Positions 26,775-63,095 of a DNA stretch of 64,000 nucleotides are shown here, in pieces (position 1 is the stretch's first letter; each line of letters begins with the position of its first letter). Source of the stretch: Candidatus Nomurabacteria bacterium. GTDB lineage: Bacteria; Patescibacteriota; Dojkabacteria; SC72; JAHDCA01. The notes under the pieces are model-generated. The model did no database searches. It saw only the letters and a program-made list of their open reading frames with translations, and was not told the DNA's origin. Made by a program: the position numbers and the translations under genes. The stretch covers positions 226,009 to 290,008 of the forward strand of contig JACKFQ010000001.1 in assembly GCA_020632395.1 (NCBI GenBank), in the 5' to 3' direction.

Positions 26775-27692
26775 TCAGTATGGATCATCAAAGTTATCAG
26801 GGTCATCATTTCCACAACGAGGACATTTTGTTAGTGGCTTTTGACCTTCATAAACATATTCGCATTTTAGACATTTCCATGAGTTCCACTTTACATCCAG
26901 ATCCTCGGGATACAATTTATCTGTGAGAATGTCGTCTGATATTGGATCCATAACCGAGGCGGATCGCTTATCTGTTGGTGTGGGTGGTGTGGAAGGTGTT
27001 GTACCTGGTGGTGTGGAGGATGTTGTATCTGGTGGTGTGGAGGGTGTTGTACCTGGTGGTGTGGAGGGTGTGGGAGCGTTTATTGTAGCTGTTGTAGGAT
27101 CTGTTATTGTAGTTGTCGTTGTAGGCACCGGAATTGAAGGATCAACGCTATATGTGGTTGTTGGATTTTGCTGATCGCTCAAGGGGATCTTAACTTGAGG
27201 TGCCGATCGTTCTACAAATGAGTTTGGCACTGCGGATGGTGATACTACGCCGGATCCCAAAGTAGTTGGTGTTTGATCTGTTTGACCTGGTACTTGACCA
27301 GTTACCTGTCCGACCGTTTGTCCGACCGTTTGTCCGTCCGCTTGTCCGAATAGTTGGGCTGATGGAGGTGTTTGAGTAGGGTTTGATGATTGAGAGGTTG
27401 GATCAGGCGTTGGGGTTGAGGTCAGAGTTGCAGGATTGATTGTAGTTGGTGAATTGTTAACATTTTGTAGACTCTGTAGGTTTTGTTGGTCAGTTGGTAT
27501 TTGTGCAGTATTCTGTGGTGGTTGTTGTGGAGTCTGGATAGCTGGATTGATATGGGGATCCTGAGTTGTTAGAGTCGGATCAGATGTCGTAGATGATGGA
27601 TCTGATGCCCCTACTGGGAGATCTTGACCTGGTGTTGATGGAGAGGTTGAATTCTGATCCGAATTTTGATTCATATCATTATTTGGGATCAA
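26775..27692 (-). CDS. proline/threonine-rich low-complexity protein with C-terminal zinc-ribbon (CxxC...CxxC)
   Basis: Tandem PPGTTPSTPP repeats from ~27-bp DNA repeats. C-terminal CLKCEYVYEGQKPLTKCPRCGN. Confidence 0.5.
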   Translation of the reverse strand: MIPNNDMNQNSDQNSTSPSTPGQDLPVGASDPSSTTSDPTLTTQDPHINPAIQTPQQPPQNTAQIPTDQQNLQSLQNVNNSPTTINPATLTSTPTPDPTSQSSNPTQTPPSAQLFGQADGQTVGQTVGQVTGQVPGQTDQTPTTLGSGVVSPSAVPNSFVERSAPQVKIPLSDQQNPTTTYSVDPSIPVPTTTTTITDPTTATINAPTPSTPPGTTPSTPPDTTSSTPPGTTPSTPPTPTDKRSASVMDPISDDILTDKLYPEDLDVKWNSWKCLKCEYVYEGQKPLTKCPRCGNDDPDNFDDPY

Positions 27693-46411: not shown

Positions 46412-47596
46412 ATGAAAAAAATTAGTAAACTTTTCATCATCGCAAAGTTCATCGAAAGAATACCTGCTGCATTCTTTGGACCAATCTATTCGGTCTATCT
46501 ACTGCAGAACGGCTTGTCACTCTTTCAGGTGAGCTTAGTGAATTTTACATATATGATCACCTTAGCTTTGATAGATCCTTCAACAGGACGGTTAGGTGAT
46601 AAATATGGTCATACTCGTATATACATCTTAGGTACAGCAATTTTTGGTTTGGCTGACCTAATATATGGATCGGGTTCTATGATCATGATATTCATCATTG
46701 CAGAGATCACTGCTTCAATTGGAAAAGCACTGATGTCAGAAGCTTTAGAAGCAAAGCTAAAGAATTCCGTACGAGATGATTCAGAAGTTCATAAAGCGAA
46801 AGCAGACGCTAAGCTACTCAGTCAGATAGGAAAGTTAAGCCTATCAGCTGTGTCTACTTTAGTACTAGCAAGATTTGATAATCTATCAATTGGCTGGTAC
46901 ATAGCCGCTGCGATTAGCTTAGGTGGATCTGGAATTCTACTCTTCCTTCTACGACATGAGGTTGTAGAAGAGAAGGAGATACGTCGGAATGGCACCGCAA
47001 CGAGATCAGAGATGAGCTACAAACAGGCTTTTCGGATCATCCGTCATAACCCGAAATTGTCGTTCATAGCGATGCTCACTTTCATCTCATATCTAGCGTT
47101 CCAACCACTAAACATGTATTGGAGTCCTCTGTTAGAACAGAAGACTGGTGGAATAGAATTGCTAGGAAGTTTCTGGGTTGCTGTTTCACTAACTATAGTC
47201 GTGGGTCAGCTACTTGCAAGACGGATAAAAGTAGCAAAGATCGATAGACAAATGAACCTCATCATGTTGGCTGTTACAGCAGTAATGATACTGCTCGCAA
47301 CCATCTCAAGTAATGTCGTGCTGATTGCCTTAGCTTTTCTGTTACATGAGATCCCCAGAAGTATGCAACAAACTGTTTTGCATACAATGACTAACCGCTC
47401 AGATGATGAGGATGAGATCCCAGATGAAGATAGGGCTTTCATTAACTCGATCTTCGGGTCATTGACCACACTGGGATCAGCGATAGGATTGCTTGGACTT
47501 GGCGCTCTGACCGAGTTCTTGACCATTCAACAGGTTTGGAGTGTTTCAGGGGGTATCCTTCTGATCACAACACTCCTGTTATGGCGAAAAAAGTAA
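46412..47596 (+). CDS. MFS-like multi-TM transporter
   Basis: ~12 hydrophobic helices; loop motif GRLGDKYGHTR. Confidence 0.5.
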   Translation: MKKISKLFIIAKFIERIPAAFFGPIYSVYLLQNGLSLFQVSLVNFTYMITLALIDPSTGRLGDKYGHTRIYILGTAIFGLADLIYGSGSMIMIFIIAEITASIGKALMSEALEAKLKNSVRDDSEVHKAKADAKLLSQIGKLSLSAVSTLVLARFDNLSIGWYIAAAISLGGSGILLFLLRHEVVEEKEIRRNGTATRSEMSYKQAFRIIRHNPKLSFIAMLTFISYLAFQPLNMYWSPLLEQKTGGIELLGSFWVAVSLTIVVGQLLARRIKVAKIDRQMNLIMLAVTAVMILLATISSNVVLIALAFLLHEIPRSMQQTVLHTMTNRSDDEDEIPDEDRAFINSIFGSLTTLGSAIGLLGLGALTEFLTIQQVWSVSGGILLITTLLLWRKK

Positions 47597-47598
47597 AT

Positions 47599-47650
47599 AA
47601 ACACCTCGGAGGTTCATTCCGGTGAGCCTCTGGGGTGTTTACTTTTTCTC
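47599..47650. terminator. bidirectional intrinsic terminator between convergent MFS gene and murB
   Basis: AAACACCTCGGAGG...CCTCTGGGGTGTTT imperfect hairpin with T-runs on both strands. Confidence 0.5.
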
Positions 47651-48788
47651 AGACGATCACAACCTCACTCTTTAGATCGATCCCATAGGCATCTTTTACG
47701 TTCTTCTTCATTGCTTCTGTGTATTCAAAGACCTCTTTACCAGTTGCTTTCTTATTTGTTATGACACAAAGTGCATGGCGATCGAATGTACCGACATTCC
47801 CATCCCACTTACCTTTCCAACCAAGCTCATCAAGTAAACGACCAGCAGGGATCTTTACGATCTCTTGATCACCAGTATCCTCCCAAGAAGTATTGTGATA
47901 ATCCATCTTGTTGACCGGATACTGTTGTAATTCGTCGATCTTGGTCGCTAACTCTTTAAACTGATCAACTGTCAAAAACGGATTCGTAAAGAAGCTTCCA
48001 CAGGTACCATACTCATCCATCCAAGGAAGCTTATATTTTCGTAATTCGGTGACAGCACGAACCACATCAATTGGTTTATAAGGGGGAGTAGCTATCTTCT
48101 TTAACCACTCTTCTAAACTCTCGTTCTTATATCGGGAATGATAAGAGGTGTCAAACTCAGCATGCTTAGACAACCGCAATGTGACTGAAACTATAGCGTA
48201 ATGCTCAAAACCTTTCTCCTTGAAGATACTGTGACGATATTTGAAATTCATATCATCATGTTTGAAAACTTTCAGTTCACCGTTATATAGATCTACAGCC
48301 TCAAGCTCTACGAAAACATCTTCAGTCACTTGACCGTAAGCGGCAATGTTACCCACAGGTGCAGCACCAACTGTACCAGGTATGTAGGCAAGATTTTCTA
48401 CACCACTGTATTCCTGCTCTGCCAACCAGACAACTACATCCCTCCATATCTCACCAGCACCAAATTTAAAGTCTGTATAGTCCCCATTCGTATGGAGTTT
48501 TTCCCTTCCTCTAATTTCCATCTTTATCAACAGACCCGTAAGATCCTTTGTAAATAAAGTGTTACTTCCTTCTCCTAAGATAAAAAACACCTTCTCTTTG
48601 AAAGGGTATTGTTTCGTAAGTTCGATCAGATCATCTTTAGAAGAAATAGCTATAAATTGGTCAGCAAATGCTTCGATAAACAATGTGTTCAATGACTTCA
48701 GACTTTTATCCTTTGTTATTTTCATTATCCGTTCCTTACAGTTTATCTGTTTACATATTACCCTCACTCGCACTGATAATAAAGACAT
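47649..48788 (-). CDS. murB: UDP-N-acetylenolpyruvoylglucosamine reductase MurB (probable true start MKITKD, ~48725)
   Basis: FAD-binding region IPGTVGAAPVGNIAAYG and C-terminal CGSFFTNP motif. Confidence 0.8.
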   Translation of the reverse strand: MSLLSVRVRVICKQINCKERIMKITKDKSLKSLNTLFIEAFADQFIAISSKDDLIELTKQYPFKEKVFFILGEGSNTLFTKDLTGLLIKMEIRGREKLHTNGDYTDFKFGAGEIWRDVVVWLAEQEYSGVENLAYIPGTVGAAPVGNIAAYGQVTEDVFVELEAVDLYNGELKVFKHDDMNFKYRHSIFKEKGFEHYAIVSVTLRLSKHAEFDTSYHSRYKNESLEEWLKKIATPPYKPIDVVRAVTELRKYKLPWMDEYGTCGSFFTNPFLTVDQFKELATKIDELQQYPVNKMDYHNTSWEDTGDQEIVKIPAGRLLDELGWKGKWDGNVGTFDRHALCVITNKKATGKEVFEYTEAMKKNVKDAYGIDLKSEVVIV

Positions 48789-48855
48789 TTATCGGATAAC
48801 TAATATTTGTAGCAATACTGATCGTACAACGTGGGTGTACTTTCAAAAAGTAGGG

Positions 48856-49003
48856 CTTCACAGACCGAGCTTCACAGACCGAGCTTCACAGACCGAGCTT
48901 CACAGACCGAGCTTCACAGACCGAGCTTCACAGACCGAGCTTCACAGACCGAGCTTCACAGACCGAGCTTCTCAGACCGAGCTTCTCAGACCGAGCTTCT
49001 CAT
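48856..49003. repeat. 14-bp tandem repeat array, ~10.5 copies (8x cttcacagaccgag, 2x cttctcagaccgag, 1 partial)
   Basis: Read directly; lies in the divergent murB/murA intergenic region; no unique spacers. Confidence 0.9.
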
Positions 49004-49211
49004 ATTGGTTCCCATACACTCAACCCTTTGAGTTCTCCCGATCTGGTCAGAGAGCTTCAACTTTTTTGCAGGATCCACAAGTATAAAAATTGTCAGGAAA
49101 TCTTAAGTATTTTTAATGATCAAAAATGTTACCTTTTTCAAATATTTCGGTATAATGAAAGTATAGGCTTATAGCCGACCTAGTCATTAAATTGTCACTA
49201 GAAATAACAAA

Positions 49212-50507
49212 ATGGCAAATTTGGTAGTACATGGAGGTATACCTCTATCTGGTGAAATTACACCATCAGGGTATAAGAATTCGATAGTAGTCATCATCGC
49301 CGCATCATTACTTACCGACCATCCTGTCATGATCAGCAATGTCCCTGATATTACTGATGTTCAGCGTTTGACGGATTACTTGATAAGTCTAGGCTCAAAG
49401 ATCGAATGGAACAAGGATGCTGAAACTTTAAGGATCGATAATTCCGGAATCCCTGAAACAGTTCTTTTAGGTGACTTCCCATCCACAATGGGAGCCTCTA
49501 ATCTACTTTTTCCCCCTTTGATACAAAGACTCAAGGATGTCACCTTTCCCCGTCGTATGAAAGGTTGCTCACTTGGTATCCGCGAACTTGATGATAGGCT
49601 GGATGTACTACAAGTTCTTGGAGCAAAATTAGATGCGACCGATGAGGATCTCAGGATCAGTATCGATGGCAGATTTAGAGGAGGCGATGTATGGCTCGAT
49701 TATCAAGGGGTAGGGGCAACCGAGAATTTCGTAATGGCAGCTGTCTTAGCAGATGGCGTCTCGACTTGTATCAACTCTGCTTCAGAACCTCAGGTAGAAG
49801 ATCTGTGTAAATTCCTTGTAACCCTCGGTGCACAGATCGAAGGTATTGGTACGAATAAGTTAAAGATCACAGGTGTTGGAGAATTAAGAGGAGGAGAATA
49901 CAGGATAACAGATGATTACTACGAAGTAGCTACCTTCCTAGCCTTAGGTGCGATGACAAATGGAGATATAAAAGTATATACAAAGAACAAGGAGTATTTT
50001 GGAATAATTAAAAAGAACTTCAAGAGATTAGGGGTAGAATTGGAAGACAAGGATAATTATTACAGGGTCACGCCTGGGCAAAGTATGGAAATACTACAAC
50101 CATTTACCACCAACTTCACTCCAAAGATCGAAGCTGCACCGTGGCCATATTTCCCTGTGGATCTAACACCTGTATTTGTTGCTTTATCAACAAGATCAAA
50201 AGGTACAACATTGCATTGGAATAAAGTTCACGAAGGACAACACCTATGGATAACCGAACTTATGAAGTTTGGTGCTCATGCGCTACTGGCCGATCCTCAT
50301 AGAATGCTGGTATTTGGTGATAAACCCACAAAACCCGCAGTTGTAGTCGCTCCAAACATTATCCGAGTTGCTGTTGCTCTTTATATGATGGCAGCAAGTA
50401 TTGAAGGTCAAAGTACAGTAAGGGATGCAGATACTATCAAACGTGCACATCCTCTCTTTGTACCAAACTTACAAAAATTAGGTGCAATAGTGGATTGGGA
50501 GATCTAA
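49212..50507 (+). CDS. murA: UDP-N-acetylglucosamine 1-carboxyvinyltransferase MurA
   Basis: N-terminal LVVHGGIPLSGEITPSGYKNS and EPSP-synthase-fold repeats. Confidence 0.9.
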   Translation: MANLVVHGGIPLSGEITPSGYKNSIVVIIAASLLTDHPVMISNVPDITDVQRLTDYLISLGSKIEWNKDAETLRIDNSGIPETVLLGDFPSTMGASNLLFPPLIQRLKDVTFPRRMKGCSLGIRELDDRLDVLQVLGAKLDATDEDLRISIDGRFRGGDVWLDYQGVGATENFVMAAVLADGVSTCINSASEPQVEDLCKFLVTLGAQIEGIGTNKLKITGVGELRGGEYRITDDYYEVATFLALGAMTNGDIKVYTKNKEYFGIIKKNFKRLGVELEDKDNYYRVTPGQSMEILQPFTTNFTPKIEAAPWPYFPVDLTPVFVALSTRSKGTTLHWNKVHEGQHLWITELMKFGAHALLADPHRMLVFGDKPTKPAVVVAPNIIRVAVALYMMAASIEGQSTVRDADTIKRAHPLFVPNLQKLGAIVDWEI

Positions 50508-51591: not shown

Positions 51592-51825
51592 ACAGAGCGG
51601 TCTTTTTCTCAATCCACTTAGGAGACTTTGATATAAGCATTCGATCTGGCTTTCACGTTGACTATAGGGTCACTATATCTAATAGTAAAGCTCGTAAAGA
51701 GGATAAAACCCTGAAAATTCACACTACAAGACAATCACTATTTTGACATAGATTTAACTTGCGTGCTACTTTGTTAGTGGTGATTGGTGGCACTGAGTGG
51801 TGATTTCTGATATGCTCATTGTAAT

Positions 51826-55424: not shown

Positions 55425-56140
55425 GGGTATTTACTCAGTTTGATGTATTGAAAAGTACGACCGATTTCTTCCCACTTCTTGTAGTAGTGCGTTTCGATCA
55501 GATTGAGCAGTTTGGGACTATAAACTCCCTTTTCAATTTTACAATCTACCCTGTACGTAGCAAATTTGCTTACCTCCGCATCTACAAAACCATAGTACTC
55601 ATCCCAATCAGTGACAAAGAGTATTTCGCCTCCTTCTTGTAAAACCGACCAGATAGAATACAACCATCTACTCGTGATCGGTCTTCGTTTATGATGTCTT
55701 TTCTTGTGCCACGGGTCGGGAAACAAAATATAGATCTTGGACACAGTGTTTTTGTCGAACAATTTTGATATAAACGGATACGCATCTGCTTTATAGACCA
55801 ATGCGTTAGACTGATCTTTGATCTTCTTCTCAGTCCTACGAGTATATTCACTCGATATCTCAAAACCAATAGATACAGCATCTTCATTGACAGTGGCAAG
55901 ATGATGTAAAAGCTCACCATGACCAGAACCAATCTCGACCAATATCCTTTTGGTATCAAAATACCTATCCCACCTTACTGGATAGGGTAGACGATCTACA
56001 CCAAACGAGCCTACTATCCGAGGATCTATCTGCCAAAATATCGATCTTACTTTTTTGATGAAGATAGAGATACTTTTAGTAAGAATCTTGTATGATAGAT
56101 AACTATACTTCTTTATTTGATGTTGCATTACCTGTAACAT
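55421..56140 (-). CDS. trmB: tRNA (guanine46-N7)-methyltransferase TrmB
   Basis: EIGSGHGELL SAM motif and FPDPWHKKRHHKRR. Confidence 0.8.
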   Translation of the reverse strand: MLQVMQHQIKKYSYLSYKILTKSISIFIKKVRSIFWQIDPRIVGSFGVDRLPYPVRWDRYFDTKRILVEIGSGHGELLHHLATVNEDAVSIGFEISSEYTRRTEKKIKDQSNALVYKADAYPFISKLFDKNTVSKIYILFPDPWHKKRHHKRRPITSRWLYSIWSVLQEGGEILFVTDWDEYYGFVDAEVSKFATYRVDCKIEKGVYSPKLLNLIETHYYKKWEEIGRTFQYIKLSKYP

Positions 56141-57387
56141 TCTACAAATTGAAAACTCGCAATCTTACCACAATTATATTATTGATCCTCGCACTACTCA
56201 CTGTCGTGGGCATATTTTACTATGATTACACTATCAGAACCAATTCATCAACGGAAATTAAAGAAGACGACATAGAAAGTATCAAGCAACTATATACCAA
56301 CGACCAAAGAGAAGAACAACCCATACAATCACCAGACGAGAGTGATCAAGCATCTGATCGATCACCCGATAAATTACCCCAAGTAGAGCCGAAACCAGAT
56401 ACAAACATATCACAACCTGAGCCAATACAGAGCGGAGATCAACTCAAGTATACTGCCTGGATACCTTCATGGGGTCACACTGCCGGAGTTGCATCATTAC
56501 AGAAACAGCCAGAGATATTCGGATCCATATCTCCAGTTTGGTATTCTCCGACACCTGACGGCTCACTTGATATCAAATTCCCCAGTGGGTACAAAACATT
56601 CCTACAGTTCTGTAAAGACAATGATATACGCGTCATACCCTCCATCGCTATGTTCGATGCGGAAGTATTAACCCAGATCCTGAATAGCAATACAAACTTC
56701 TCAAGACATATCAACCAGATCATCGACCAGGTCGCTATTAATGATTTTGACGGGATAGACATCGATTATGAGATGATCTATCTATCCGACAAAGATCGAT
56801 TTCTCACTTTTGTAGACGAGCTTAGTACTCGCTTGCAAAAAGACAACAAGATCCTATCAATAACTATCCTGGCACAATGGGGAGACAATGTGATATACCC
56901 TTCATTGAAAGAAACACGTGCAGTTCAAGAACTCGAACTGATAGGCAAGCTTGCTGATGAGGTTAGGATCATGACATACGATTACACACCGAACAGTTCA
57001 CGCGAACCAGGACCTATTGCCCCGATCGATTGGATGGAAAATGTACTGAAATACACCGTGACAAAGATCCCGTCAGAAAAGATATGGCTTGGCACACACC
57101 TATATGGATACGAATGGATCTCAACAGGTGGGGTAAGTGCGACAACATTTTCTGATCTATCACAATTACGATCGATAGAGGACTTCCAAGTCACCCATAA
57201 CTATACATACAATGAGGGTGTTGCAAATTATACTTGTGCGACAGACCTCAAATGTACATTATTCTTTCAAGACCAGAAAGGTATCGAAGCCAGAAGATCA
57301 CTAGCAGAGAAGTATCAAATTGCTGGATTGGCATTTTGGAGATTGGGAGATGAAGCGGATCTCTTGACACCACTACTTTCCGATTGA
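56092..57387 (+). CDS. membrane-anchored glycoside hydrolase family 18 (chitinase-like / YaaH-type) protein
   Basis: N-terminal TM; FDGIDIDYE catalytic DxxDxDxE motif. Confidence 0.6.
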   Translation: MIDNYTSLFDVALPVTFYKLKTRNLTTIILLILALLTVVGIFYYDYTIRTNSSTEIKEDDIESIKQLYTNDQREEQPIQSPDESDQASDRSPDKLPQVEPKPDTNISQPEPIQSGDQLKYTAWIPSWGHTAGVASLQKQPEIFGSISPVWYSPTPDGSLDIKFPSGYKTFLQFCKDNDIRVIPSIAMFDAEVLTQILNSNTNFSRHINQIIDQVAINDFDGIDIDYEMIYLSDKDRFLTFVDELSTRLQKDNKILSITILAQWGDNVIYPSLKETRAVQELELIGKLADEVRIMTYDYTPNSSREPGPIAPIDWMENVLKYTVTKIPSEKIWLGTHLYGYEWISTGGVSATTFSDLSQLRSIEDFQVTHNYTYNEGVANYTCATDLKCTLFFQDQKGIEARRSLAEKYQIAGLAFWRLGDEADLLTPLLSD

Positions 57388-60654: not shown

Positions 60655-60903
60655 ATGGACGAACCATTAGCATCTAAGTATCGCCCACTGACCCTATCTG
60701 ACATGATCGGTCAAGAACACTTGATAGGGGATCAAGGACCAATACGAAAACTTATGGAGAGCAACAAGCTTCCTTCTATGATCTTTTGGGGACCTCCCGG
60801 TACAGGCAAAACAACTCTAGCATACGTGATATCACAAGATCTAAGGTACGACTTTTACAAACTGCAAGCGGTATCGAGTGGAAAGAAAAAGCTCATGGTA
60901 AGG
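60655..60903 (+). pseudogene. rarA: rarA/mgsA (recombination-associated AAA+ ATPase) N-terminal fragment, interrupted by IS3-family element
   Basis: YRPLTLSDMIGQEHL...GPPGTGKTTLA Walker A; ORF terminates 2 codons into the IS. Confidence 0.8.
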
Positions 60904-60967
60904 TGAACCCCATTCTTTGGACACGATTTGCCCAAAGTTAAGGTGGATTAACCTCCTTTCCCTTGAT

Positions 60968-61795
60968 TTAATAATTAAAGTATACATCAGCAGGAGTTCT
61001 CTTCTCAAGTGAGCTATGTCTCCTCTGATGGTTGTAGAACAAAAAGTACTTCTCTAGTCGATCTCGAGCTTCGTTTCCGTCAGCATAATCATACAGGTAC
61101 ACTTCCTCATATTTCACAGTTCTCCACAACCTCTCGATGAAGATATTGTCAAATGCCCGACCCCTCCCATCCATGCTGATCTTTACACTGTAAATTTTCA
61201 GAAGATCCGTGTACTCCTGACTGGTATACTGGCTTCCCTGATCTGTATTCGAAATCTGTGGCCGGCCTTGGTTTAAAGCCTCCTGTAGAACACTGACACA
61301 ACCTGACTTATGCATTGTATTTGTCAATTTCCAGCTGATTACATATCTTGAATACCAATCCATTTCGGCTATCAGATACAAGAATCCATGTCGCATTCTG
61401 ATGTACGTAATGTCACTGCACCAGACCTGATTTGGTTTCGTTATCTCAAGATCTTTGAGCAAGTACGGATATTTCTGGTCAACCTCATTGAATTTGCTGA
61501 GATTCTTTTTGGGCACTACTGCCGATATGCCCAACAGATTCATCAGTCGTAGAACCTTCTTGTGATTCACATCGTCTCCTGTGGTATTAAGTTCGTCCGT
61601 AATTGGTCTATACCCGTAAAAGGGTCTTTTTGTGTAGATCTCATCGATTCGATTAAGTAGGTATTGGTCATATTCACTGACTTCTACTGGTTTGTAGTAG
61701 TAAGTACTTTTGTTCAACTGTAAAAGAGCTATTTGATCCTTTTTCGTCAGTACACTATTTTTTTCTACAAGTCGTCGTTTCTCCTCATTCGTCAA
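60968..61795 (-). CDS. IS3-family transposase OrfB (DDE integrase core, rve domain)
   Basis: WCSDITYI...D...HSDQGSQYTS...E catalytic DDE spacing typical of IS3. Confidence 0.85.
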   Translation of the reverse strand: MTNEEKRRLVEKNSVLTKKDQIALLQLNKSTYYYKPVEVSEYDQYLLNRIDEIYTKRPFYGYRPITDELNTTGDDVNHKKVLRLMNLLGISAVVPKKNLSKFNEVDQKYPYLLKDLEITKPNQVWCSDITYIRMRHGFLYLIAEMDWYSRYVISWKLTNTMHKSGCVSVLQEALNQGRPQISNTDQGSQYTSQEYTDLLKIYSVKISMDGRGRAFDNIFIERLWRTVKYEEVYLYDYADGNEARDRLEKYFLFYNHQRRHSSLEKRTPADVYFNY

Positions 61796-62078
61796 TTCCC
61801 ATCTTTTTTTTTAGCCAGTCCAAACTATACTCCAGTTTGCCTATCTTTCTATACAGGTCTTCAATGAGCCTCTCTTTTTCCTTCAGTTCTAAGCTCAGGT
61901 CTTTTTTGTCAAATCCGGCTTTCAGAATCTCCTCTGCCTGGGTTTTCCATTTTGCGATTTGATTTGGGTGTATCCCAAACTTTGACCCTAGTTCAGCCAT
62001 TGTTTCATTTTCTGCCATTGCTGTCTTTGCAACCGTGGCCTTAAATGCCGCTGAGTGTTTTCTTCTTATTTTTCCCAT
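61785..62078 (-). CDS. IS3-family transposase OrfA (HTH); -1 frameshift site A9G at the orfA/orfB overlap
   Basis: HTH N-terminus plus leucine-zipper-like C-terminus; T9 run at 61804-61812 on + strand. Confidence 0.8.
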   Translation of the reverse strand: MGKIRRKHSAAFKATVAKTAMAENETMAELGSKFGIHPNQIAKWKTQAEEILKAGFDKKDLSLELKEKERLIEDLYRKIGKLEYSLDWLKKKMGIDE

Positions 62079-62126
62079 ACCTCATTTTACACCTTAACCT
62101 CGTGTCCAGTTTTTGGGGTTCACCTC

Positions 62127-63095
62127 ATGGAAATAACCAAGATCGCATACCAAAACTATCAATTCAACAAAAGGACCATCGTGTTCTTAGACGAGATCCA
62201 TCGATGGAACAAAGCCCAACAAGACACACTACTTCCGTATGTAGAGAAGGGGATCATCACACTTATCGGAGCAACGACAGAAAACCCCTCGTTCACTATC
62301 AACAATGCACTTCTATCTCGGACCAGGGTATTCACTTTTAAAGCATTGGATGCAAGATCTATAGCACAGAAACTCGAACAGGTATTGAAACTAGAGTATT
62401 CGGATATCACATATAAGAAAACAACTCTCCTCAAACTTTCCAAACTAGCCGGGGGAGACATGAGAAGTGCCTACAATATAGTTGAGATCGCAATATCAAT
62501 TCTTCTATCAGAGATCTCCGATAAGAAAAAGAAGAAGGTCTTGAAGCTCGAACATATCTTATCAGCAAGTCAGAGACCTTTAATGTATGATCGCAACGGT
62601 GAAGAGCATTTTAACCTGATATCAGCAGTGCACAAATCTCTTCGATCCTCAGATGCAGATGCCGGAGCATACTGGGTTGCTAGAATGTTAGCCGGAGGCG
62701 AAGACCCTTTGTATATTGCTAGACGCTTAGTTCGCTTCGCTTCTGAGGATATAGGAAATGCAGATCCTAACGCACTGATACTTGCTAATGCAGTTTTTGA
62801 TACTTGCCAGAGGATAGGGATGCCCGAATGTGAAGTGGCACTGATCCAATTATCACAATATCTAGCTGATGCGCCGAAAAATAATTCCGCATACACAGCC
62901 TCAAACAACATCAAAGACGATATACGCAAATATGGAGAACTTGACGTCCCTTTACATATCCGCAATGCACCAACAAAACTTATGAAAGAGCTAGGATATA
63001 GTAAAGGGTATATTTACGATCACGACCTGCCTAATAAAAGATCTGGACAACAATGTCTGCCTGATGTTTTGAAAAAAAGGAAGTATTTCAAGTGA
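62127..63095 (+). pseudogene. rarA: rarA/mgsA C-terminal portion (continues the reading frame interrupted by the IS)
   Basis: LMEITKIA...FLDEIHRWNKAQQDTLLPYVEKGIITLIGATTENPSF (Walker B/sensor) and the MgsA C-terminal helical domain. Confidence 0.8.

Follow-up and report, generated by a model that had tools for sequence, protein, structure and literature searches.

Why does a perfect 14-bp tandem repeat stand between the divergent cell-wall genes murB and murA of a CPR/Patescibacteria bacterium, and does its length matter to either gene? We studied this array in a window of 64,000 nucleotides, by which we mean the whole stretch of DNA analysed; the host has a G+C content of approximately 40%. 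The array has the form described in the original prediction, about 10.5 copies that consist of eight identical units, two one-base variants and a partial copy. At positions 48856–49002, eight perfect units of CTTCACAGACCGAG (A-type units, 48856–48967) are followed head-to-tail by two units of CTTCTCAGACCGAG (T-type units) and a 7-nt partial unit, CTTCTCA (48996–49002), so that the T-type end of the array covers 48968–49002. The 14-bp unit has a G+C content of 57%, and the array is bordered by the unique flanks AAGTAGGG...CTTCTCATATTGG. Tandem Repeats Finder (TRF) called a repeat of period 14 at 48855–48999, with 10.4 copies, 99% matches and a score of 276, far above any other tandem repeat in the 64-kb window, the runner-up being a repeat in a coding region with a score of 157. 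Allowing up to two mismatches, the 14-mer occurred ten times in the window, each time within the array, against an expectation of 0.37, and none of 100 shuffled sequences reached ten occurrences.

Mis-assembly is common at tandem repeats, and in one public scaffold (GCA_020429305.1) an N gap falls within the array; both would fit an assembly or sequencing artefact. However, the same array with its flanks was seen again in at least ten assemblies or runs that are independent of one another and used different assemblers, and two megahit contigs built with k=141 span arrays shorter than k, both unique flanks included. Logan contigs (k=31) from at least eight runs stop inside the array, entering it from the left or from the right, which is how a perfect repeat that exceeds k should behave. 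That the array breaks short-k assemblies in so many runs itself indicates that the repeat is real. We therefore give an artefact next to no probability and regard this explanation as already effectively refuted.

The identity of the flanking genes as murB and murA, which had been read from the sequence, was upheld by Pfam domains and by the names of homologues and identical NCBI entries. murB (UDP-N-acetylenolpyruvoylglucosamine reductase, 358 amino acids) lies at 47649–48725 on the minus strand and contains FAD_binding_4 and MurB_C domains, in agreement with public gene calls and NCBI names. murA (UDP-N-acetylglucosamine 1-carboxyvinyltransferase, 431 amino acids) lies at 49212–50507 on the plus strand and contains an EPSP_synthase domain. 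The surroundings form a chromosomal dcw-type cluster, with mraY, mraZ and rsmH downstream of murA, and mur ligases and an MFS transporter gene beyond murB. The start of murB is most likely the ATG at 48725 (MKITKDK...) and not the ATG of the longest open reading frame (ORF) at 48788, because a Shine-Dalgarno sequence, AAGGAA (48737–48732), stands 6 nt upstream of the former, all public gene calls give a protein of 358 amino acids, and the N-terminal extension of the longest ORF is not conserved in the second spacer allele described below. With this start, the array begins 130 bp upstream of murB. The distance of 68 bp given in the original prediction applies to the longest ORF and should be revised, whereas the distance of about 210 bp to murA holds (209 bp to the ATG at 49212). 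The array thus sits roughly at the centre of a spacer of 486 bp.

A separate observation concerns murA itself. Two contigs (L062, positions 734–2028, from ERZ27309388; and L063, positions 296–1590, from ERZ28655585) carry the same 1-bp deletion, ACCTTCC to ACTTCC, at about window position 49933. The deletion shifts the reading frame after approximately codon 241, and the gene is called there as two pieces of 242 and 184 amino acids. It may be a real pseudogene variant in strains with the array allele, or a shared error.

We then compared the array between strains. All comparative evidence on the spacer is within-species; exact-protein look-ups yielded many contigs of this species. Three contigs span the array with both unique flanks, and the copy number, determined by regex and TRF, differs in each of them: 10.4 in the window (eight A-type and two T-type units, unit string AAAAAAAATT), 9.4 in L062 (ERZ27309388, megahit k=141; seven A-type and two T-type units, AAAAAAATT) and 6.4 in L039 (ERZ27248703, a 44.7-kb contig, megahit k=141; four A-type and two T-type units, AAAATT). 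In a fourth, L001, the piece of GCA_020429305.1 to the right of the N gap, the sequence begins, with one mismatch, in the left flank, and the count is ambiguous, with five A-type and two T-type units and probably 7.5 copies. These numbers were taken from assemblies, not reads; because the arrays of L062 and L039 are shorter than the megahit k of 141, their counts must rest on real reads. The variation was confined to the homogeneous A-type units, whereas the two T-type units and the partial unit, which form the ancestral-type end of the array, were constant in the spanning contigs. The flanks of these contigs are 99.4–99.9% identical, and L039 differs from the window at seven positions in about 12 kb outside a small cassette described below.

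Variation in the A-type units alone, next to constant T-type units and near-identical flanks, marks the array as a slipped-strand-mutable VNTR. Its mutability had been proposed, together with a comparison of copy number across strains that might have shown it to be invariant; instead, the number differed in every spanning assembly. The array is thus a real VNTR, with a copy number that is polymorphic among near-identical strains, and its high-identity head-to-tail units and variable copy number between conserved flanks are those of a VNTR or minisatellite. The N gap within the array of GCA_020429305.1 may hint at heterogeneous lengths inside one clonal population. In this respect it closely resembles the VNTR loci used for MLVA typing in Burkholderia, Francisella and Mycobacterium (PMC1853098, PMC3037875), which are likewise intergenic and made of perfect head-to-tail units of 10–60 bp. 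Both vary in copy number between close strains while the flanks are conserved, and in both the variation lies in the most homogeneous part. The array differs in belonging to an uncultured CPR bacterium, whose genome is about 1 Mb in size, and in being present on only one of the two spacer alleles.

The second allele is found in near-identical genomes. In GCA_020632435.1 (contigs L002, L010, L033 and L038), the segment at 48745–49126 of the window, which includes the array (allele A), is replaced by a divergent sequence (allele B), giving a spacer of 363 bp that has no tandem repeat. Allele B was also present in many other contigs (L003, L011, L012, L029–L031 and L040). The two alleles are 64% identical over 255 aligned columns, compared with 99.99–100% in the flanks. 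The murA and murB coding sequences of the window and L002 are 100% identical, and outside the spacer GCA_020632435.1 differs from the window by one mismatch in 21,092 bp (26890–47981), by three over the roughly 11.8 kb that follow the spacer on the right, and by one IS insertion. Both alleles occur in the same sample: in ERZ27248703, L039 carries A and L011 carries B, and in SRR15882951, L013 carries A and L040 carries B. Because allele B is found in near-identical, co-occurring genomes, the array is dispensable. The spacer is hypervariable, and no other non-coding stretch in the roughly 45 kb compared between strains is. The gene-adjacent regions on both sides are more conserved between the alleles than the centre of the spacer, and the part nearest murB has 15 mismatches in about 80 bp (48745–48823).

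A second polymorphism lies to the right of this segment. At 49140–49209, in the putative murA promoter and 5′ leader, two states (x and y) differ at ten positions in 70 bp; seven of the ten are in the 12 nt directly before the murA ATG (cactagaaataacaaa versus cagtagtgattttgaa), and eight of the ten are A in the state of the window. This cassette assorts independently of the A and B alleles. The window is A with x, contigs L001, L039 and L062 are A with y, and L002 is B with x, whereas L003 is a mosaic with allele B, the x state at 49140–49165 and the y state at 49198–49209. All combinations of A/B and x/y were observed, and allele A was found on two MurB and MFS backgrounds. Alleles that are only 64% identical in otherwise near-identical genomes point to a switched intergenic region, and the spacer shows the hallmarks of one: divergent alleles between the same gene pair, distributed incongruently with linked polymorphisms. 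The spacer is thus a recombining switched intergenic region. Such switching, or horizontal regulatory transfer, is known from Escherichia coli, as cited in the paper on the Piggy tool (PMC5890482), and from Staphylococcus aureus (PMC5890482; see also PMC9944727). There, as here, one gene pair carries two divergent alleles in near-identical genomes, with incongruent polymorphisms next to them. The likeness extends over the whole spacer segment of about 380 bp; the array would be a secondary event inside one allele.

A further observation near the spacer is a segment of about 900 bp (46500–47400) within the MFS gene (46412–47596), which in GCA_020429305.1 and SRR17907851 is approximately 77% identical to the window between flanks that are about 100% identical. 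It is another recombination-swapped segment.

Comparison of the alleles also suggests how the array may have arisen. Where the last unit and the partial unit of the array align, allele B reads GAGATTCTCAGTTTGAGCCTC, that is, a single proto-unit followed by a degenerate partial copy. The proto-unit, ATTCTCAGTTTGAG, has T at unit position 5, as do the T-type units, which indicates that the T-type is ancestral. The eight A-type units would then be a recent expansion of a mutated unit. In architecture the two alleles are homologous: with a single unit, allele A would be about 360 bp long, compared with 363 bp for allele B.

Does the array carry any signal that could act on the neighbouring genes? 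We scanned the region with a custom hexamer search for promoters. The array contained no −35/−10-like pair on either strand, and no good σ70 match was found between the array and murB. The murB promoter is presumably in the murB-proximal 100 bp. A candidate murA promoter, TTACCT-16 nt-TATAAT, lies at 49129–49156 on the plus strand; this is a consensus match only, and according to the alignment it is the same in alleles A and B. The array ends 126 bp from its −35-like box, almost as far as it lies from the murB ATG (130 bp). There was no dyad symmetry or palindrome in the unit. Neither the array, as DNA on both strands, nor the putative murB leader folded more stably than shuffled sequences (z = +0.9 to +2.6), and Rfam gave no match at the gathering score or at E ≤ 1.

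The array also has no sign of a coding function. The plus strand is open in all frames only owing to the repeat, and no conserved small ORF in the spacer is common to alleles A and B. A search with the array peptide against 5.8 billion proteins returned a single match, an ORF called on the array of GCA_020429305.1. These results bear out the view that the array lies outside any gene and that the ORFs overlapping it are artefacts of the repeat. The two-unit pattern CAGACCGAGCTTCNCAGACCGAG had no match in 185,579 GTDB species genomes, JGI metagenome contigs or IMG/VR. The suggested search for other copies of the 14-mer likewise came back empty: beyond the array there was none in the 64-kb window, and the 9-mer core and the junction motif were also confined to the array.

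Several classes of repeat locus were considered and set aside. In CRISPR arrays, repeats of 23–50 bp alternate with unique spacers that are about as long; the units here abut without spacers, in accord with the earlier dismissal of CRISPR. For a mobile element or MITE, there were no notable flanking inverted repeats and no copies in viral contigs. A DGR target, in which changes would be limited to adenine positions of a template repeat, does not fit, as the 91 substitutions between alleles A and B (41 transitions and 50 transversions) fall on all bases, with the allele A base being A in 25, C in 22, G in 18 and T in 26 and thus no base bias, and the neighbourhood contained no reverse-transcriptase gene. 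A replication origin with iterons lacks a Rep or DnaA context at this chromosomal locus. The array is also not the MraZ operator, as the boxes belonging to mraZ itself (GTGGTG/GTGGCA, 10-bp spacing) are found upstream of mraZ at 51777–51806 and are unlike the 14-mer. Those boxes are a minor observation in their own right: directly upstream of the mraZ start (51826), three direct repeats, GTGGTGATTG GTGGCACTGA GTGGTGATTT, recur with a 10-bp period, with TTGACA at about 51745, and look like a classical MraZ operator.

Taken together, these data suggest that the array is probably a young hypermutable minisatellite in a switched spacer and that it is close to neutral, with no more than a modest influence on promoter spacing. 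On this account, a 14-bp stretch with a degenerate partial copy would once have stood at the centre of the murB–murA spacer, within one of two old, divergent spacer alleles that recombination shuffles between near-clonal Dojkabacteria strains found together. Amplification of this stretch, by slipped-strand mispairing or unequal exchange, would have yielded T-type units first. A T-to-A change in the leftmost unit would then have created the homogeneous A-type unit, which would have expanded and contracted repeatedly. Slippage and unequal exchange are established for units of this size and are largely independent of mismatch repair. The number of units would alter only the distance between the divergent promoter regions, by 14 bp or approximately 1.33 helical turns per unit, and any consequence for the transcription of murB and murA would be quantitative and modest. 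The argument for near-neutrality or a modest spacing effect is that the array is dispensable, unconserved and free of signals. We infer the slippage mechanism, the order of events and the (near-)neutrality from sequence comparison, and neutrality specifically from the lack of conservation.

One possible alternative, which we hold to be doubtful although worth weighing, is that the array is a contingency locus or rheostat in which slippage in the number of units tunes the transcription of murB, murA or both. The route, which we put forward just as tentatively, would be a change in the distance and helical phase of upstream sequences relative to the promoters, or a change in the coupling of the divergent promoters, leading to heterogeneous synthesis of peptidoglycan precursors. 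The position of the array in a divergent promoter spacer and its highly variable copy number among near-identical strains are consistent with this idea, as is the unusual diversity of A/B and x/y spacer states on a clonal background, which suggests selection on regulation. Upstream repeats are also known to exert graded control elsewhere (PMC12721329, PMC12817950; reviewed in PMC3899988): repeats upstream of or within promoters tune the expression of hmw1A in Haemophilus influenzae (PMC12721329) and of genes in Mycobacterium tuberculosis (PMC12817950). However, the array is neither between predicted −35 and −10 boxes nor beside a recognizable core promoter, and allele B manages without it. Contingency loci typically act on surface, antigenic, restriction–modification or similar niche-adaptation functions and occur several to a genome; murB and murA are housekeeping genes, and TRF found no comparable repeat elsewhere in the 64-kb window, and so no sign of a genome-wide contingency strategy. 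The M. tuberculosis promoter repeats (dop, lpdA and cysG–efpA; PMC12817950) are similar to the array in lying upstream of genes, in having a polyphyletic copy number that varies between near-isogenic genomes and in being hidden by short-read assembly. By contrast, their units are 54–58 bp long, include a functional promoter and lie 12–29 bp from the gene, whereas the unit here is 14 bp long, contains no promoter element and lies 130–209 bp from the gene starts.

That two deeply divergent spacer alleles persist together hints at selection on the regulatory region, which makes an effect of array length on regulation conceivable. Carried further, this hint leads to a bolder proposal that we consider improbable, namely that in this episymbiotic-type CPR bacterium balancing or diversifying selection keeps the two ancient spacer haplotypes side by side in the same communities and that the array serves as a slippage rheostat or a promoter insulator, making peptidoglycan-precursor synthesis heterogeneous from cell to cell. 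Were both selection and the rheostat real, essential cell-wall genes would be subject to a contingency mechanism of a kind that has not been described in this lineage.

It is also very unlikely, in our view, that the array acts post-transcriptionally from inside a long 5′ leader of murB, in the manner of the hmw1A repeat (PMC12721329). A candidate minus-strand promoter near murA, ATGACT-16-TATACT (49187 to 49160), is identical in alleles A and B and would generate such a leader, and the array and murB have no convincing σ70-like promoter between them. However, promoter-like matches in the region are at the level of shuffled sequence (three versus 2.7 expected), the fold of the minus-strand RNA that contains the array is no more stable than that of shuffled sequences (z = +0.94), and a leader of 430 nt would be unusual for a 1-Mb genome. 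The comparison with hmw1A and hmw2A is instructive. Their (ATCTTTC)n repeat is, like the array, a short upstream repeat with a copy number varied by slippage, and hmw expression is graded, not on/off (PMC12721329). But the hmw repeat is part of the transcribed 5′ UTR and pairs with a G-rich partner into a long hairpin, which RNase III processes, whereas the array has no such structure and its repeat has no complementary partner in the spacer. The hmw target is, moreover, an adhesin, whereas the neighbours of the array are housekeeping genes.

We assign an equally slim chance to an iteron-like function, one of the two put forward in the original prediction, in which a DNA-binding protein would occupy the units and the array would serve as operator, decoy or nucleoprotein structure. 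Ten identical direct repeats could offer many identical sites, and MraZ, which binds direct repeats, is encoded 2.6 kb downstream; iterons and MraZ-type operators are also non-coding arrays of identical direct repeats beside promoters. Yet neither allele B nor the remainder of the 64-kb window contains the unit, and GTDB, JGI and IMG/VR have no tandem copies of it; it has no dyad symmetry; its period of 14 bp is out of helical phase (approximately 10.5–11 or 21–22 bp); and no regulator or Rep gene is adjacent, MraZ having its own, dissimilar boxes. The proposal is therefore not supported, for want of conservation, other copies, dyad symmetry, helical phasing and an adjacent gene for a binding protein.

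The array is thus an intergenic VNTR, a known kind of locus, here in a CPR genome and within a noteworthy switched spacer. As an ordinary and well-documented type of repeat, it could help to tell strains of this Dojkabacteria population apart at high resolution, and it illustrates the breaks and collapses that short-read assembly produces at loci of this kind. The spacer itself is of greater interest, with its two deeply divergent alleles and a mini-cassette that recombine freely in near-clonal genomes. If the length of the array or the choice of allele changes the expression of murB or murA, the CPR would offer a rare example of essential cell-wall genes with a regulatory polymorphism at the population level. 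Our literature search found nothing linking Dojkabacteria or CPR bacteria with tandem repeats or repeat-mediated phase variation.

Proteins identical to MurA and MurB are deposited once under Candidatus Dojkabacteria bacterium (GCA_020429305.1) and twice under Candidatus Nomurabacteria bacterium, one of the latter entries being the 1.09-Mb contig of GCA_020632435.1. The lineage is isolated: the next relatives of MurA in a protein search share 70% identity, on a 1.5-kb contig that provides no context, and 58% identity, in a genome in which the gene order differs and murA is divergent from mraY. A MurA-based search for related loci in GTDB representatives and JGI metagenomes returned only Verrucomicrobiota (51–53% identity); the species of the window was missing from the JGI metagenomes, and the search of the GTDB representatives did not return it either. 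Besides the two relatives just named, which are poorly sampled, the closest MurA homologues with a named source were also from Verrucomicrobiota (Opitutaceae, Lacunisphaera and others, 51–57%), not from other Patescibacteria. This Verrucomicrobiota-like MurA may reflect an old horizontal transfer or a sampling bias.

We also noted other variable features in the window. An IS3-family element of about 1.2 kb (60902–62123) is present in the window and absent from GCA_020632435.1 and from other contigs. It has a transposase ORF at 60968–61795 on the minus strand, with rve and HTH_21 domains, and terminal inverted repeats TGAACCCCATTCTTTGGACACG / CGTGTCCAGTTTTTGGGGTTCA, and it interrupts an mgsA/rarA AAA+ gene that encodes 402 amino acids where intact and leaves a 346-amino-acid remnant at 62055–63095. 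Within the species, the GH18 gene at 56092–57387 is called as 431, 412 or 401 amino acids depending on the contig, and the methyltransferase next to it as 235 or 239 amino acids, which suggests a variable junction. Finally, the minus-strand ORF at 26775–27692 holds a 24-bp repeat in 3.7 copies (26983–27071, score 157) and a 12-bp repeat in 3.6 copies (27307–27349), and a public gene call gives it a weak match to RUBY_RBDX.
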